NCBI GenBank assembly: GCA_903928345.1
Contig: CAIYQO010000229.1
Location: forward strand, 1,351-65,350
Length of the DNA: 64,000 bases
DNA from: an uncultured bacterium
GTDB taxonomy: Bacteria; Armatimonadota; Hebobacteria; CAIYQO01
Reading direction: 5' to 3'
Both the position numbers and the translations under genes were made by a program. The notes under the pieces were generated by a model. That model was not told the DNA's origin. It did no database searches and was given only the letters and a program-made list of their open reading frames with translations. The stretch's first letter is position 1; the number at the start of each line of letters is the position of its first letter. Positions 26,678 to 39,444 of the stretch are shown piece by piece.

Positions 26678-26836
26678 GGAGAATGGGGGAAGCGGGGAAT
26701 GGGGGTATGGGGAACGGCCGGGCTCCTGCCCTGTTCCAAACGGTGACTAAGATCACACCTGATCGGTCGTCGCCTATCCATGCCGGCCTTCCCCCACTTC
26801 CCCATTCTCCCATGCCCCATTCCCCACTTCCCCCCG
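26678..26836. repeat. MITE-like element, same family, copy B, in direct orientation relative to copy A; between the ADH start and hypF.
   Basis: ggagaatgggggaagcggggaatggg...ccgggctcctgccctgttccaaacggtgactaagatcacacctgatc...cccccacttccccattctcc. About 85% identity to copy A over the core. Confidence 0.8.
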
Positions 26837-26854
26837 GCGCGCTATAATGCCCGC

Positions 26855-29104
26855 GTGGAAGAGACGGGGCAACGACTGCGGTTGCGCATCTTCGGGGCGG
26901 TGCAGGGGGTGGGGTTTCGGCCCTTCGTCTACCGCCTGGCGGAAGCGTTGGCGCTGGCGGGATGGGTGCAAAATACGCGTCAGGGGGTGATCGTCGAGGT
27001 GGAGGGTATGCCCACGGTGCTGGCGACCTTCCAGCGGCGCCTCGTGGATGAGAAGCCCGTCTCGGCGGCGCTTTACAGCCTGGAGCCGACCCTCCTCGAC
27101 CTCGCGGGATACACCGGGTTCGACATTCGCCCCAGCGACGACACGGGGGATGCCGTGACCCTCATCCTGCCCGACATCGCCTTGTGCGACGCCTGCCGCA
27201 CCGAGCTGTTCACCCCCGCCGACCGGCGCTACCGCTACCCGTTCATCAACTGCACCCACTGCGGCCCGCGCTTCAGTATCGTCACCGCGCTGCCCTATGA
27301 CCGCCCCAACACCACCATGCGCGGCTTCACGATGTGCCCGGCGTGCGCGGCGGAGTACCACGACCCGGCGGACCGGCGCTTCCATGCACAGCCGGTGGCC
27401 TGCCCCGCCTGCGGGCCACAGCTCGCCTTATGGGACGCCGCCGGGAAGCCGCTCGCCACCCGCGACGACGCCCTGCGCGCCGCGGTGGACGCGCTGCGCG
27501 GGGGGCAGATCGTCGCGGTGAAGGGGCTGGGCGGCTTTCAGTTACTCGTCGACGCGCGCGACGCCGACGCGGTGGCCCGGTTGCGCACGCGGAAGGCGCG
27601 GGAGGAGAAACCCTTCGCCGTGATGGCCCCCTCGTTGGACGCCGCGCGCGCGCTGTGCGCCGTCTCCGACGACGAGGCGCGCCTGCTCACCGGCCCCGCC
27701 GCGCCCATCGTGCTGCTGGACCGCCGCGCGGACGTGTTGGCGCACAACCTGGCCCCCGGCAATCCCACCCTCGGCGTGATGCTGCCCTATACGCCCCTCC
27801 ACGCGCTGCTGCTCGACGCGCTGGGCTTTCCGGTGGTGGCGACCAGCGGCAACCGGGCGGAGGAGCCCATCTGCATCGACGAGCATGAGGCGCTCGACCG
27901 GCTGGCGGGCATCGCGGACCTGTTTCTGGTGCACGACCGGCCCATTCACCGCCACGTGGACGACTCCATCGCGCGGATCGTGGACGGGCGGGAGCTGCTG
28001 CTGCGCCGCGCGCGCGGGTACGCCCCGCTGCCGGTGGCCCTGCCTGGGGCGCTGCCCCCCGTGCTCGCGGTGGGCGGGCATCTGAAGAGCACCGTGGCGC
28101 TGGCGGTGGGGCCGCACGCCATCGTGAGCCAGCATATCGGCGACCTGGAGAGCGCCCCTGCCGCCGACGCCTTCACGCGCGTCATCGCCGACCTGGAAGC
28201 GTGTTACGGCGTCACCCCAACGACGGTGGCATGCGATATGCACCCGGATTACCGCTCTACGCAGTATGCACGCGCGCGCGGGCTGCCCATGGTGCCGGTG
28301 CAGCACCACCTGGCGCACGTGCTGGCGTGCGTGCACGAGCACGGGCTCACCGGGCCGCTGCTCGGGGTGGCGTGGGACGGCACGGGCTTCGGCCCCGACG
28401 GCACCATCTGGGGTGGGGAGTTCTTCGCCCTCGACGACGCCACCGTGTGCCGCGTGGCGCACTTGCGCCCCTTTCCACTGCCCGGCGGCGAGGCGGCGGT
28501 GCGCGAGCCGCGACGGTCGGCGCTGGGACTGCTGCACGCGTGGGGGGGAGCGGGGACGCCTCCCGCCGGCGCCTTCACCGACGCGGAGCGTGCCGCGCTG
28601 GGGGGGATGCTCGCGCGCGGTGTCAATTGCCCGCGCACCAGCAGCGTGGGGCGGCTCTTCGACGCCGTCGCGTCGCTGCTCGACTTGCGCCAGGTGAACC
28701 GCTTCGAGGGGCAGGCGGCGATGGCGCTGGAGTTTGCCGCGGTGCCGACGGACGACGGCTACCCGATGCCGCTGGTCGACGACGTGCTGGGCTGGGCGCC
28801 GTTGCTGGCGGCGCTGTGCGCGGATATCGCCGCCGGTGTGTCCGCCGGTGTTTGCGCCGGGCGTTTCCAGGCCGCGCTGGCGGGGGCCATCGTCGCCATG
28901 GCGGCGCAGTACGGCGCGGAGCGCGTGCTGCTCACCGGCGGGTGTTTCCTTAATCGTTCTTTACTGGAACAAAGTATCGCGTTTTTGCGCCGCGCGGGCC
29001 ATCTTCCCTACTGGCCGCAGCGGATTCCGCCCAACGATGGGGCGCTCGCCCTGGGGCAACTGCACGCCGTCGCGCATCCGCGCGAATGGCGACAACTGCG
29101 ATGA
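26855..29104 (+). CDS. hypF: [NiFe]-hydrogenase maturation carbamoyltransferase HypF.
   Basis: Acylphosphatase domain (RIFGAVQGVGFRPFVYRLA...VQNTRQGVIVEVEG). Two Zn-finger motifs (CDACRTEL...CTHCGPRFS and CPACAAEY...CPACGP). YrdC-like region and a Kae1/carbamoyltransferase C-terminus. GTG start 26855 inferred because the upstream part of the ORF lies in a repeat element. Confidence 0.9.
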   Translation: MEETGQRLRLRIFGAVQGVGFRPFVYRLAEALALAGWVQNTRQGVIVEVEGMPTVLATFQRRLVDEKPVSAALYSLEPTLLDLAGYTGFDIRPSDDTGDAVTLILPDIALCDACRTELFTPADRRYRYPFINCTHCGPRFSIVTALPYDRPNTTMRGFTMCPACAAEYHDPADRRFHAQPVACPACGPQLALWDAAGKPLATRDDALRAAVDALRGGQIVAVKGLGGFQLLVDARDADAVARLRTRKAREEKPFAVMAPSLDAARALCAVSDDEARLLTGPAAPIVLLDRRADVLAHNLAPGNPTLGVMLPYTPLHALLLDALGFPVVATSGNRAEEPICIDEHEALDRLAGIADLFLVHDRPIHRHVDDSIARIVDGRELLLRRARGYAPLPVALPGALPPVLAVGGHLKSTVALAVGPHAIVSQHIGDLESAPAADAFTRVIADLEACYGVTPTTVACDMHPDYRSTQYARARGLPMVPVQHHLAHVLACVHEHGLTGPLLGVAWDGTGFGPDGTIWGGEFFALDDATVCRVAHLRPFPLPGGEAAVREPRRSALGLLHAWGGAGTPPAGAFTDAERAALGGMLARGVNCPRTSSVGRLFDAVASLLDLRQVNRFEGQAAMALEFAAVPTDDGYPMPLVDDVLGWAPLLAALCADIAAGVSAGVCAGRFQAALAGAIVAMAAQYGAERVLLTGGCFLNRSLLEQSIAFLRRAGHLPYWPQRIPPNDGALALGQLHAVAHPREWRQLR

Positions 29105-29253
29105 ATGGTATCGCATATCCCGAATTTGTCGCATTTACCCACCCACTTTTCGCGCCCATTCGTGCTTGTTTCTTATATAGTTTGTAAGATTTATGGAACA
29201 AAAAAAGTTCGCAACTATTTTCCACACCAGCTTAACTATCAACCGTTTTCGTG

Positions 29254-29282
29254 TTGACACTTCCATACGCTTGTGATATTTA
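29254..29282 (+). promoter_or_regulatory. Sigma70-type promoter for the hdrCBA-mvhDGA-protease operon.
   Basis: TTGACA (29254-29259), 17-nt spacer, TATTTA (29277-29282), in an AT-rich 280-bp intergenic region, about 100 nt upstream of hdrC. Confidence 0.5.
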
Positions 29283-38231: not shown

Positions 38232-38252
38232 CGACGTCCCCTTTCGAACTCG

Positions 38253-39014
38253 TTACTTCGCCGCCCCGCGCAGGTGCGTGACGACGTGGTGCACCTTGGC
38301 CATGAGCAACTGATACGCATACGGCAGATTGGCATATTCGAGCTTCTGCGTCACCAGCAGCACCCCCATGACCAGCAACAGGATGCCGGAGACGATCTCG
38401 ATCGTCCGCATGTGCCGGGTGATCTTACCCAGCGATCCCAGGAAGAATTGCAAAAACATGGCCGCTAACAGGAACGGCACCGCGAGTCCGATGGTATAGG
38501 CGACCAATAAGCTCAGTTTGGCCGTGACCACGGTCATGCCCAGCACGCCGCTGAGGAACGGCCCGATGCACGGGCTCCACCCGAAGGCGAAGGCGGCCCC
38601 GATAAGCACCGCCCCGAAGACGCCCACCTTCTTCGTGTCCAGGTGAAAGCGTCGCTCCTGGAAGAGCATATTCAGGCGGAAGACCCCGAGCATGTGCAGC
38701 CCGAAGATCATGATGACCCCCGCGCCGATCCAGCTAAACGCCGTCTTCCACGCCTGCCCGGTGCTCGAAAACACCTCGACCAGCCCGCCCAACAGCAGCA
38801 CCACCACCAGGCTGAACCCGAGCATAAAGCCCAGCGCACTGCCGAGGAGCCGCCAGCGCGCGGCGCGCACGGCCTCCTGGTCCTGCATCTCCTCGAACGT
38901 CATGCCGGAGATGAGCGAGAGATACACCGGCACAATCGGCAACACGCACGGGGAGAAGAAACTCATAATCCCCGCCGCAACCGCAACAATCAGTGCCACC
39001 AGGGCACTCCCCAT
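38253..39014 (-). CDS. ccdA: Cytochrome c-type biogenesis protein CcdA / DsbD-family thiol:disulfide interchange membrane protein.
   Basis: Polytopic membrane protein with the two conserved Cys in SFFSPCVLP and FGWSPCIGP. Confidence 0.85.
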   Translation of the reverse strand: MGSALVALIVAVAAGIMSFFSPCVLPIVPVYLSLISGMTFEEMQDQEAVRAARWRLLGSALGFMLGFSLVVVLLLGGLVEVFSSTGQAWKTAFSWIGAGVIMIFGLHMLGVFRLNMLFQERRFHLDTKKVGVFGAVLIGAAFAFGWSPCIGPFLSGVLGMTVVTAKLSLLVAYTIGLAVPFLLAAMFLQFFLGSLGKITRHMRTIEIVSGILLLVMGVLLVTQKLEYANLPYAYQLLMAKVHHVVTHLRGAAK

Positions 39015-39267
39015 ATGACCCCCGTCCTCGGCGAGTCATGGAGCATCGCCGCAGTCACCTCGGTTGTTCCCGCCCCAGAGAGTCGGCAAACGCTCCGTGG
39101 CTATTGCATCAGTATATAGTTATAACTTCAAGTACCCACCATCGCGTGGAAAGAACGGTGGCATCGGTGCAATTCCGTGCGGATGGAGAGCCTGTCGTAG
39201 TATCGCGATATTGAGACATGGACCGATTGATGCTCTTTGATTCATGGGTATCGGTACGTTCTACGTG

Positions 39268-39444
39268 CTTGGCGATTGAAATCGCAGCTAGTTGGCCTCA
39301 TCGGCCAGGCGTCCCCCTACGGGGACGCGGTGGCGGTGAAAAACGTCAACACCCTCTTCCGCATCCCCGTCCGCGGAGGCGGACGGCTGGCGCGGAGTCG
39401 CCGAAGAGCTGCGCCTTCAGTCGCCGCGAACCCGCGAACCATAG
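39268..39444. repeat. Palindromic MITE-like element, same family, copy 2 (between ccdA and the DUF721 gene), inverted relative to copy 1.
   Basis: cttggcgattgaaatcgcagctagttggcctcatcggccaggcgtccccctacgggga...ctgcgccttcagtcgccgcgaacccgcgaaccatag matches the reverse complement of copy 1. Confidence 0.8.

Follow-up and report, generated by a model that had tools for sequence, protein, structure and literature searches.

A probable HdrABC-linked [NiFe]-hydrogenase locus in an Armatimonadota bacterium and the palindromic repeats in and around it

Introduction

When a set of hydrogenase and heterodisulfide reductase (Hdr) genes is punctuated by palindromic repeats, has the host acquired it as a module, and what would its HdrB subunit reduce? 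These questions are raised by a locus on contig CAIYQO010000229.1 (assembly GCA_903928345.1) of an uncultured bacterium, which we analysed in a stretch of 64,000 nucleotides (nt), positions 1,351 to 65,350 of the contig; this whole stretch is called the window, and its own numbering is used below. The preliminary description of this DNA, made from the letters alone, took the repeats for copies of a miniature inverted-repeat transposable element (MITE) that delimit an acquired or rearranged block, regarded the gene set as unusual for such a host, and named a neighbouring TlpA-like protein and CcdA as the nearest candidates for a thiol/disulfide partner.

We conclude, with a probability of roughly 0.85, that these genes specify a cytoplasmic [NiFe]-hydrogenase linked to HdrABC (MvhAGD-HdrABC, HydDB group 3c type) in a member of the Armatimonadota, accompanied by hypF, a HycI-type protease gene and hypA, and that the repeats are non-coding palindromic elements, similar to MITEs or to REPINs (paired repetitive extragenic palindromic, or REP, sequences), that were recently inserted between genes and are not specifically connected with the hydrogenase.

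Gene content of the locus

Our gene calls rest on Pfam and NCBIfam scans, and several starts were shifted inward from the longest open reading frame (ORF). The scans recovered every gene that had been named before:

26855-29104, plus strand: hypF, [NiFe]-maturation carbamoyltransferase; TIGR00143 at 775 bits against a cut-off of 466, and five HypF Pfam domains
29382-29975, plus strand: hdrC, two-[4Fe-4S] ferredoxin-like subunit of 197 amino acids; Fer4_8, matching HdrC chains 7bkb_C and 5odc_C
29989-30873, plus strand: hdrB, two CCG domains (PF02754 twice), predicted site of disulfide reduction
30940-32958, plus strand: hdrA, subunit with flavin adenine dinucleotide (FAD) and Fe-S clusters, predicted site of bifurcation; 731 bits over its full length to 5odc_A
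32951-33415, plus strand: mvhD, [2Fe-2S] adaptor between hydrogenase and HdrA; PF02662 (FlpD) at E = 1.7e-54, matching 8rvu_F and 5odc_D
33431-34396, plus strand: mvhG, [NiFe]-hydrogenase small subunit of the three-cluster type; 213 bits over its full length to 5odc_E
34409-35875, plus strand: mvhA, [NiFe]-hydrogenase large subunit; PF00374 above cut-off, L1 and L2 motifs
35875-36336, plus strand: HycI/HybD-type maturation endopeptidase; TIGR00072 at 97 bits, above cut-off
36799-37197, plus strand: hypA, nickel metallochaperone; PF01155 above cut-off
37315-37608, plus strand: DUF1540 protein of 97 amino acids with two DUF1540 domains (PF07561) and eight cysteines
37686-38231, minus strand: tlpA-like, TlpA/ResA-like thioredoxin-fold protein, membrane-anchored, with WCGFC; AhpC-TSA, Redoxin and Thioredoxin domains
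38253-39014, minus strand: ccdA, CcdA/DsbD-type transmembrane thiol-disulfide transporter; PF02683

The seven genes from hdrC to the protease gene are co-oriented and make up a full HdrABC-MvhADG set plus the protease, with hypF and hypA alongside, as had been claimed. The start overlaps reported earlier are also confirmed: the first 8 nt of mvhD lie within hdrA, and at the mvhA/protease junction the sequence TGATG contains both the protease ATG and the mvhA stop codon, which have 1 nt in common. The hdrC start is an ATG behind AAGGAG and yields a gene of the same length as in locus L081, a contig from the Joint Genome Institute (JGI) whose MvhA is 94% identical. HypA scores 34.8 bits against TIGR00100, below the cut-off of 88.1; it has the MHE N-terminus (MHEHAVV), a CxxxxC...CPEC zinc site and an HPHPHEH tail. 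The maturation genes of the window are thus hypF, hypA and the protease gene. Domains of hypB, hypC, hypD, hypE and dsrC were found in none of the coding-like ORFs scanned across the window, a scan in which small genes were not exhaustively searched, and this agrees with the earlier statement that hypBCDE are not in the window. The hypBCDE genes adjoin the operon in 10-15 of 80 other loci, and they may lie elsewhere in this genome.

Integrity of the subunits and class of the hydrogenase

Each of the six structural subunits can be aligned from end to end with chains of solved HdrABC-MvhAGD complexes, and the cofactor cysteines are kept wherever we inspected the alignments. In MvhA, alignment to 7t2r_D confirms that the motifs RICGVCPTAHH (L1) and DPCHGCATHA (L2) provide all four cysteine ligands of the Ni-Fe site. 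HdrB aligns along its entire length to 9sfi_C, 7bkb_B and 5odc_B and keeps both CCG/CxxC motifs, in the segments WNCCGA...APCAACY and RCCGG...ACPLCQ, as a subunit with two CCG domains. The cysteines of MvhD are kept in the alignment to 8rvu_F.

In HydDB, group 3c consists of the heterodisulfide-reductase-linked hydrogenases, whose function is listed for methanogens only, as H2 oxidation. The corresponding linkage is seen here in the overlap of mvhD with hdrA, in hdrCBA directly upstream and in the three-cluster type of MvhG. The gene set differs from that of the sHdr systems of sulfur oxidisers (hdrC1B1A-hyp-hdrC2B2 with lbpA, and no hydrogenase) in that hdrC and hdrB are single and mvhDGA is attached, and no lipoate-binding or DsrE/TusA domain occurs among the scanned window ORFs. 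The similarity of MvhA to chains in the PDB is less discriminating: it scores 369 bits against HydL (7t2r_D), 367-368 against group 3c chains (367 for 5odc_F; also 9sw2_F), 312 against the group 3d protein HoxH (5xf9_D) and about 100-110 against groups 3a and 3b. Since these scores fail to separate Mvh from HydL, the assignment to group 3c rests on context (mvhD, hdrABC, a full-length MvhG and the lack of NuoE/F-like genes) and not on phylogeny.

The closeness to HydL raises the possibility that MvhA and MvhG belong to a hydrogenase that is bidirectional and linked to nicotinamide adenine dinucleotide (phosphate), or is of the HydABCSL type, and that hdrABC is adjacent by accident. This would fit the top PDB match, the 312 bits to HoxH and the presence of a family named HoxH among the precomputed Pfam labels of the MvhA homologues. 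However, the operon contains no HoxFU or HydABC genes, and NuoE/NuoF-like diaphorase domains were found neither in it nor among the scanned window ORFs. MvhG is of the full-length type, whereas its match to the short HydS (7t2r_E) reaches 82 bits and covers the N-terminal part alone. The 8-nt overlap of mvhD with hdrA and a gene order that is kept across many phyla further speak against an incidental adjacency, and the best NCBIfam models of the hydrogenase subunits are VhuA, VhuG and VhuD. Compared with NiFe-HydABCSL of Acetomicrobium mobile (7T2R), then, the large subunit is equally similar, but the HydABC (NuoE/F/G-like) genes are missing, MvhG is long, and the partner would be HdrABC, through MvhD. 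We regard an accidental neighbourhood as extremely unlikely. JGI names the 94%-identical MvhA 'F420-non-reducing hydrogenase large subunit'.

The methanogen MvhAGD-HdrABC complex (Methanothermococcus thermolithotrophicus 5ODC; also 8RVU, 9SW2 and 7BKB) is alike in all six subunits over their full length, including the Ni cysteines, the CCG motifs of HdrB, the FAD and ferredoxin domains of HdrA, the cysteines of MvhD and the cluster cysteines of MvhG. Unlike the methanogen system, the locus belongs to a bacterium, has its six genes plus the protease gene in one operon, and contains no MvhB polyferredoxin, no selenocysteine and, in view, no CoM/CoB-related genes (CoM and CoB, coenzymes M and B).

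Three points weigh against an HdrABC-linked enzyme of group 3c type. First, judged by its sequence alone, MvhA is as close to HydL as to methanogen MvhA (369 and 367 bits). Second, every Hdr or Vhu score is below the curated cut-off of its NCBIfam equivalog: MvhA reaches 375 bits of 800 with VhuA, its best model, and against the methanogen equivalogs (TIGR03288, TIGR03290, NF041778, NF040770) HdrB reaches 173 of 345, HdrC 86 of 160, and HdrA 637 of 1400 and 822 of 1100. Functional identity with the methanogen enzyme is thus not established by these scores, and the complex, a homologue of the CoM-S-S-CoB reductase, should not be annotated as this enzyme itself. Third, hypBCDE, a ferredoxin gene and any substrate gene would lie outside the window.

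Host and distribution of the operon

The window's MutS2 is matched at 100% identity by a database entry, and all of its named relatives (45-67% identity) are labelled Armatimonadota, which narrows the earlier guess of a PVC/Armatimonadetes-type bacterium to its second half. The preliminary description had found an Hdr-Mvh set remarkable in such a host, and this view does not hold up. A search with MvhA scored at least 8000 candidates, and homologues with 75-80% identity run into the thousands; the 120 matches listed are all at least 74% identical, and their labels include Armatimonadota, Hydrogenedentes, Bipolaricaulota, Zixibacteria and Acidobacteriota. For gene order, we sampled 80 loci from GTDB species representatives, 65 of which had enough upstream DNA to be informative. 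The order hdrC-hdrB-hdrA-mvhD-mvhG-mvhA is the same in 43 of these 65, with the protease gene downstream in 37 of the 43, and the sampled phyla include Armatimonadota, Bipolaricaulota, Chloroflexota, Acidobacteriota, Verrucomicrobiota, Planctomycetota, Gemmatimonadota, Elusimicrobiota and Actinomycetota, among others. Published papers routinely report MvhADG-HdrABC in bacterial metagenome-assembled genomes (MAGs). Because the same operon is so common across bacterial phyla, finding it in a member of the Armatimonadota is no surprise; the locus is one more Armatimonadota example among many bacterial operons of group 3c type, and matters little beyond annotation.

Relative to hdrCBA-mvhDGA operons of bacterial MAGs, which have the same gene order and MvhA proteins 65-80% identical, this copy is distinguished by two repeat insertions (A2 and B1, below), and it does not have the EtfAB variant. 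In that variant, etfB/etfA lie upstream of hdrA-mvhDGA with no adjacent hdrB (L012, L015, L017, L032, L041, L047, L056 and others, mostly Acidobacteriota), which suggests that the electron partner of HdrA-Mvh differs in those lineages.

Repeats and the limits of the block

The repeats that prompted the idea of a module fall into two families, A and B, with two clear copies each:

25416-25540, no strand assigned: A1, between the convergent ends of an ORF at 24886-25407 (plus) and an alcohol dehydrogenase gene, adh (minus)
26678-26836, no strand assigned: A2, between the divergent adh and hypF genes, immediately 5' of the hypF -10 box; fold of -83 kcal/mol, z = -3.9
36371-36607, no strand assigned: B1, between the protease stop codon and a conserved hairpin; fold of -119 kcal/mol, z = -7.6
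39225-39473, no strand assigned: B2, inverted relative to B1; fold with z = -7.2, with a tract of C-rich heptamers beyond it at 39480-39560

A1 and A2 are 80% identical over 132 nt (E = 6e-30), the match in A2 being 26678-26809, and a core of about 48 nt lies between arms made up of G-rich, GGGGAAT-like heptamers. A third, diverged A core, with a nested insert, is at 53720-53990. B1 and B2 (36376-36607 and 39225-39468, inverted) are 76% identical over 244 nt (E = 8e-44), and each is a long imperfect palindrome. A single MITE family at all three sites can be rejected: blastn finds no similarity between A and B at E <= 0.01, MAFFT alignment adds nothing but a weak resemblance over 18 nt, and the covariance model R1 of the family B module (below) has no hit in A.

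A close relative, L081, allowed us to ask where the block ends. L081 has the genes hypF-hdrCBA-mvhDGA-protease-hypA-DUF1540 and is colinear with window positions 26839-37608 at 81-89% nucleotide identity, with a sole large break at 36367-36693 that holds B1. Neither A nor B copies are present in any of 81 loci searched with blastn, L081 included, and DNA upstream of the conserved hypF -10 box cannot be aligned with L081. B1 is thus a clean insertion inside a block that L081 shares, and colinearity ends at 37608 not in B2 but in a plain terminator hairpin. Beyond DUF1540, L081 continues with an AraC regulator, a DUF1559 protein and sulfate-activation genes, whereas the window continues with tlpA, ccdA, dciA and eda. 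The preliminary description had held that conservation of the locus in close relatives with the same flanks would speak against an acquired module; the block is indeed conserved in L081, and its right flank is not.

In less closely related loci the flanks differ as well. Two loci with MvhA about 79% identical (L206, L207) keep hdrCBA-mvhDGA-protease-hypA between other flanks, with no hypF or DUF1540 gene nearby, and an Armatimonadota locus at 76% (L208) again has other flanks, with no hypA called. HypF directly upstream and DUF1540 downstream are an arrangement of the window and L081 only, and in this clade the operon moves as a compact eight-gene unit that includes the protease gene and hypA. 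Another contig from the organism of L081 (L082) reveals rearrangements of the wider region between these genomes, so that differing flanks are the norm here.

As details of this rearrangement, the MutS2-GH2 segment, the FolC-to-AroA segment and polysaccharide-synthesis genes are rearranged relative to L082 (window 15830-15977 and about 41010), the GH2|FolC breakpoint coincides with a palindrome at 15845-15968, and AroE, AroK and a GT2 gene are in L082 and missing from the window.

The idea that the Hdr-Mvh block was recently acquired or rearranged as a module with copies of one MITE at its edges, and with TlpA-CcdA or DUF1540 supplying its thiol/disulfide partner, can now be weighed. It draws on the three repeats at 26678-26836, 36371-36607 and 39225-39473, on the start of L081 colinearity at 26839, directly after A2, together with the changed right flank, and on operon flanks that are different in every relative examined. 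In addition, MvhA retains 75-78% identity between phyla, but MutS2 drops under 50% once the nearest Armatimonadota are left behind, a discrepancy compatible with old lateral spread. However, the supposed edges belong to unrelated families, B1 lies within the conserved block, the right break at 37608 has no repeat, and the left edge of colinearity is where the contig of L081 ends. Further palindromic elements occur at six other sites in the window (12935-13294, 15845-15968, 22334-22484, 45015-45199, 53720-53990 and 63201-63317). Nor is there a compositional signal of horizontal transfer: the GC content of the locus, overall and at third codon positions (GC3), is that of the rest of the window, where ordinary chromosomal genes are found, including MutS2, UppS, CdsA, AroA, MlaE, DciA, Eda and Lon. 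The proposal is thus largely refuted, and we consider it quite unlikely; its partner component is taken up below. What survives of the earlier reading is that the repeats exist and exceed chance by far, while their role in delimiting the block and the modular acquisition deduced from them do not.

Since A and B are absent from L081 and B1 is a clean insertion, the repeats are better understood as recent insertions than as markers of an acquired module. Both families resemble MITEs and REPINs in being short (125-250 nt), non-coding, intergenic and strongly palindromic, with terminal inverted repeats and several copies, and in their presence or absence between relatives, as seen for B1 against L081 and for module copies that occupy other sites in L082. 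No direct target-site duplication was recognisable at the ends of B1 or B2. A parent transposase or RAYT (REP-associated tyrosine transposase) gene was seen neither in the window nor beside 129 related copies, and no protein family recurs next to them. A more general caution follows: in repeat-rich genomes, intergenic palindromes are not readable as module boundaries unless a relative is available for comparison.

Other palindromes of the region have features of their own. A third family, at 22334-22484, is 72-74% identical to L081 17082-17235 and L082 9766-9928, at non-homologous positions. Hairpin arms built of imperfect heptamers (GGAGAAT, GGGGAAT, GGGAACA, CGCAAAGG, or the complement TCACCCC) recur in many intergenic hairpins, namely at 15845-15968, 25416-25540, 26678-26836, 37609-37686, 39480-39560 and 53820-53960 in the window and at 15240-15300 and 16820-16890 in L082. 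C-rich heptamer tracts lie 3' of B-type modules in the window and in L082 alike.

A two-hairpin module in family B

Each arm of a B element is a two-hairpin module:

Window 36415-36565 and 39267-39429; L082 15118-15188 and 16725-16795; metagenome loci L083-L202, no strand assigned: copies of the module, those in the window being the B arms

The module consists of hairpin H1 (a 7-bp stem with a GNAG loop), a linker, and hairpin H2 with the sequence GCUGCGA(Y)UUCA(R)UCGCC; the linker is about 13 nt in metagenome copies and longer, with an extra small hairpin, in the B arms. The covariance model R1 was built from an alignment of 35 sequences that had been preselected for having a hairpin. It recognises the B1 arms at E = 7.5e-5 and 1.3e-4 and the B2 arms at 4.3e-6 and 0.0099; these four are its only hits in the window, and 1.56 Mb of other loci contain two sites, both in L082.

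A scan of metagenomes with the 18-mer of H2 gave at least 129 instances, to which the following figures apply, against an estimate of about 100 matches by chance. Among the matches listed, a perfect hairpin lies upstream in 87 of 129, at a distance of exactly 13 nt in 37 of them, and the Y and R positions can form a Watson-Crick pair in 116 of 129. The alignment of 35 sequences has compensatory changes in five of the seven H1 pairs and also in the closing pair of H2. The upstream hairpins, the 13-nt spacing, the Watson-Crick Y/R pairs and the compensatory changes in H1 argue that the matches are mostly not due to chance. Unlike lineage-specific REPs, the module is common to many unrelated metagenomes, on whose contigs two inverted copies often lie at a distance of about 115 nt from each other. 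In the sample Ga0326721, more than 15 large contigs carry a variant of it.

Neither family B nor the module corresponds to an Rfam family at the gathering threshold or at E <= 10, the literature gave no match to the hairpin sequence, and no gene recurs beside the module. In the hairpin-rich spacer just 5' of aroA, Rfam places an Acido-Lenti-1 RNA (RF01687) at 20213-20258 on the plus strand (47.3 bits, gathering threshold 37). This site, with a hairpin, 12 nt and a second hairpin, is similar in layout to the B module and might likewise be an element of the repeat type.

Candidate partners of HdrB

The preliminary description had seen no gene for a known disulfide substrate (DsrC or CoM/CoB-related), and we likewise found none among the window ORFs scanned. 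Its nearest candidates for a thiol partner were TlpA and CcdA, encoded convergently to hypA-DUF1540. TlpA/ResA-CcdA pairs provide reductant on the outer side of the membrane, in typical cases for the maturation of cytochrome c, while HdrB is cytoplasmic. The TlpA-like protein combines a hydrophobic anchor at its N-terminus with a WCGFC motif; because it faces the outside of the cytoplasm, it is an unlikely partner of HdrB. The pair is also missing from L081, L206, L207 and L208. On topology and lack of synteny we reject the suggested partnership, and tlpA-like and ccdA are not part of the Hdr-Mvh system.

On paper, DUF1540 is the better candidate of the two, with its eight cysteines and its position after hypA. 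It can be imagined that HdrB reduces a novel disulfide and that, in this Armatimonadota lineage, the DUF1540 protein is its dedicated partner, either as a DsrC-like protein substrate or as a metal or redox accessory in the maturation of the hydrogenase. A homologue search returned 12 proteins, and four homologues from Armatimonadota lie in unrelated neighbourhoods. When phmmer was run on six-frame ORFs of 81 loci, L081 was the only one with a homologue within 10 kb of the operon and the 80 other loci had none, so that DUF1540 was rejected as a conserved neighbour of the hydrogenase. We judge a dedicated role of this protein to be very unlikely.

We also looked for a conserved substrate gene near bacterial operons by clustering neighbouring ORFs of the 81 loci, and obtained only hyp genes, EtfAB (in the variant that has no hdrB) and a Cache sensor. 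What bacterial HdrB reduces without CoM and CoB is a real question; because about 85 loci compared have no conserved candidate gene, this locus gives no fresh handle on it.

Proposed mechanism and transcription

By homology to 5ODC, H2 would be split at the Ni-Fe site of MvhA, and electrons would reach the FAD of HdrA by way of MvhG, with its three Fe-S clusters, and then of MvhD, with its [2Fe-2S] cluster. Bifurcation at the FAD would send one branch to ferredoxin through the ferredoxin domains of HdrA and the other through HdrC to two noncubane clusters of HdrB, where a disulfide would be reduced. This disulfide is probably not CoM-S-S-CoB, since the NCBIfam scores are far below the cut-offs of the CoB-CoM heterodisulfide reductase equivalogs.

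The direction of this putative reaction could also be the opposite one. Flavin-based bifurcating enzymes are generally reversible, and the complex might run mainly in reverse, with reduced ferredoxin and thiol electrons forming H2 as a redox valve in fermentation. The genes of the window look heterotrophic and sugar-degrading (a GH2 mannosidase, the Eda aldolase, several GFO/IDH oxidoreductases and an MFS sugar transporter), and no genes of CO2 fixation or methanogenesis were seen in it. However, the sequence holds no sign of direction, the thermodynamics hang on the acceptor, and the function that HydDB gives for group 3c, for methanogens only, is H2 oxidation. We hold operation chiefly towards H2 to be less likely than not.

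With H2 oxidation by an HdrABC-linked enzyme as the preferred reading, the genes from hdrC to the protease gene would form one tightly packed transcription unit with its own promoter-like block, separate from hypF and followed by hypA-DUF1540. Candidate signals are as follows:

29253-29290, plus strand: promoter-like block TTGACA-17 nt-TGaTATTTA in the AT-rich hypF-hdrC spacer
36693-36780, plus strand: long hairpin with a U-run upstream of hypA; fold of -53.6 kcal/mol, z = -5.6, terminator-like site at 36761-36775
37609-37686, no strand assigned: bidirectional terminator-like hairpin with a stem of at least 20 pairs, where the genes for DUF1540 and TlpA converge

The hypF start is a GTG that lies 6 nt 3' of a TATAAT box (26843-26848), and both box and start are kept in L081; because of this short distance, the hypF mRNA is probably leaderless. 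The block of about 40 nt at 29253-29290 is identical in L081, in a spacer that has otherwise diverged, and is likely to be the promoter of the operon; a simple promoter scan made no call at this position. The arm sequences of the hairpin at 36693-36780 are also kept in L081, and this hairpin is likely a terminator or attenuator that ends the hdr-mvh operon. The hairpin at 37609-37686 would end both hypA-DUF1540 and tlpA.

Further observations in the window

Two features lie apart from the locus. Over about 2 kb at 50000-52000, GC drops from about 0.66 to 0.52-0.53, and a 368-amino-acid ORF at 50558-51664 has weak PD40/beta-propeller matches; this stretch may be foreign DNA. Three prepilin-like genes with an N-terminal methylation motif, one of them also a DUF1559 gene, are located at 1398-2591 (minus), 4477-5664 (plus) and 5726-6811 (plus), and a 238-nt inverted repeat (2315-2552/5768-6005, 76% identity) covers the 5' parts of two of these genes, a pair of divergently oriented paralogues.

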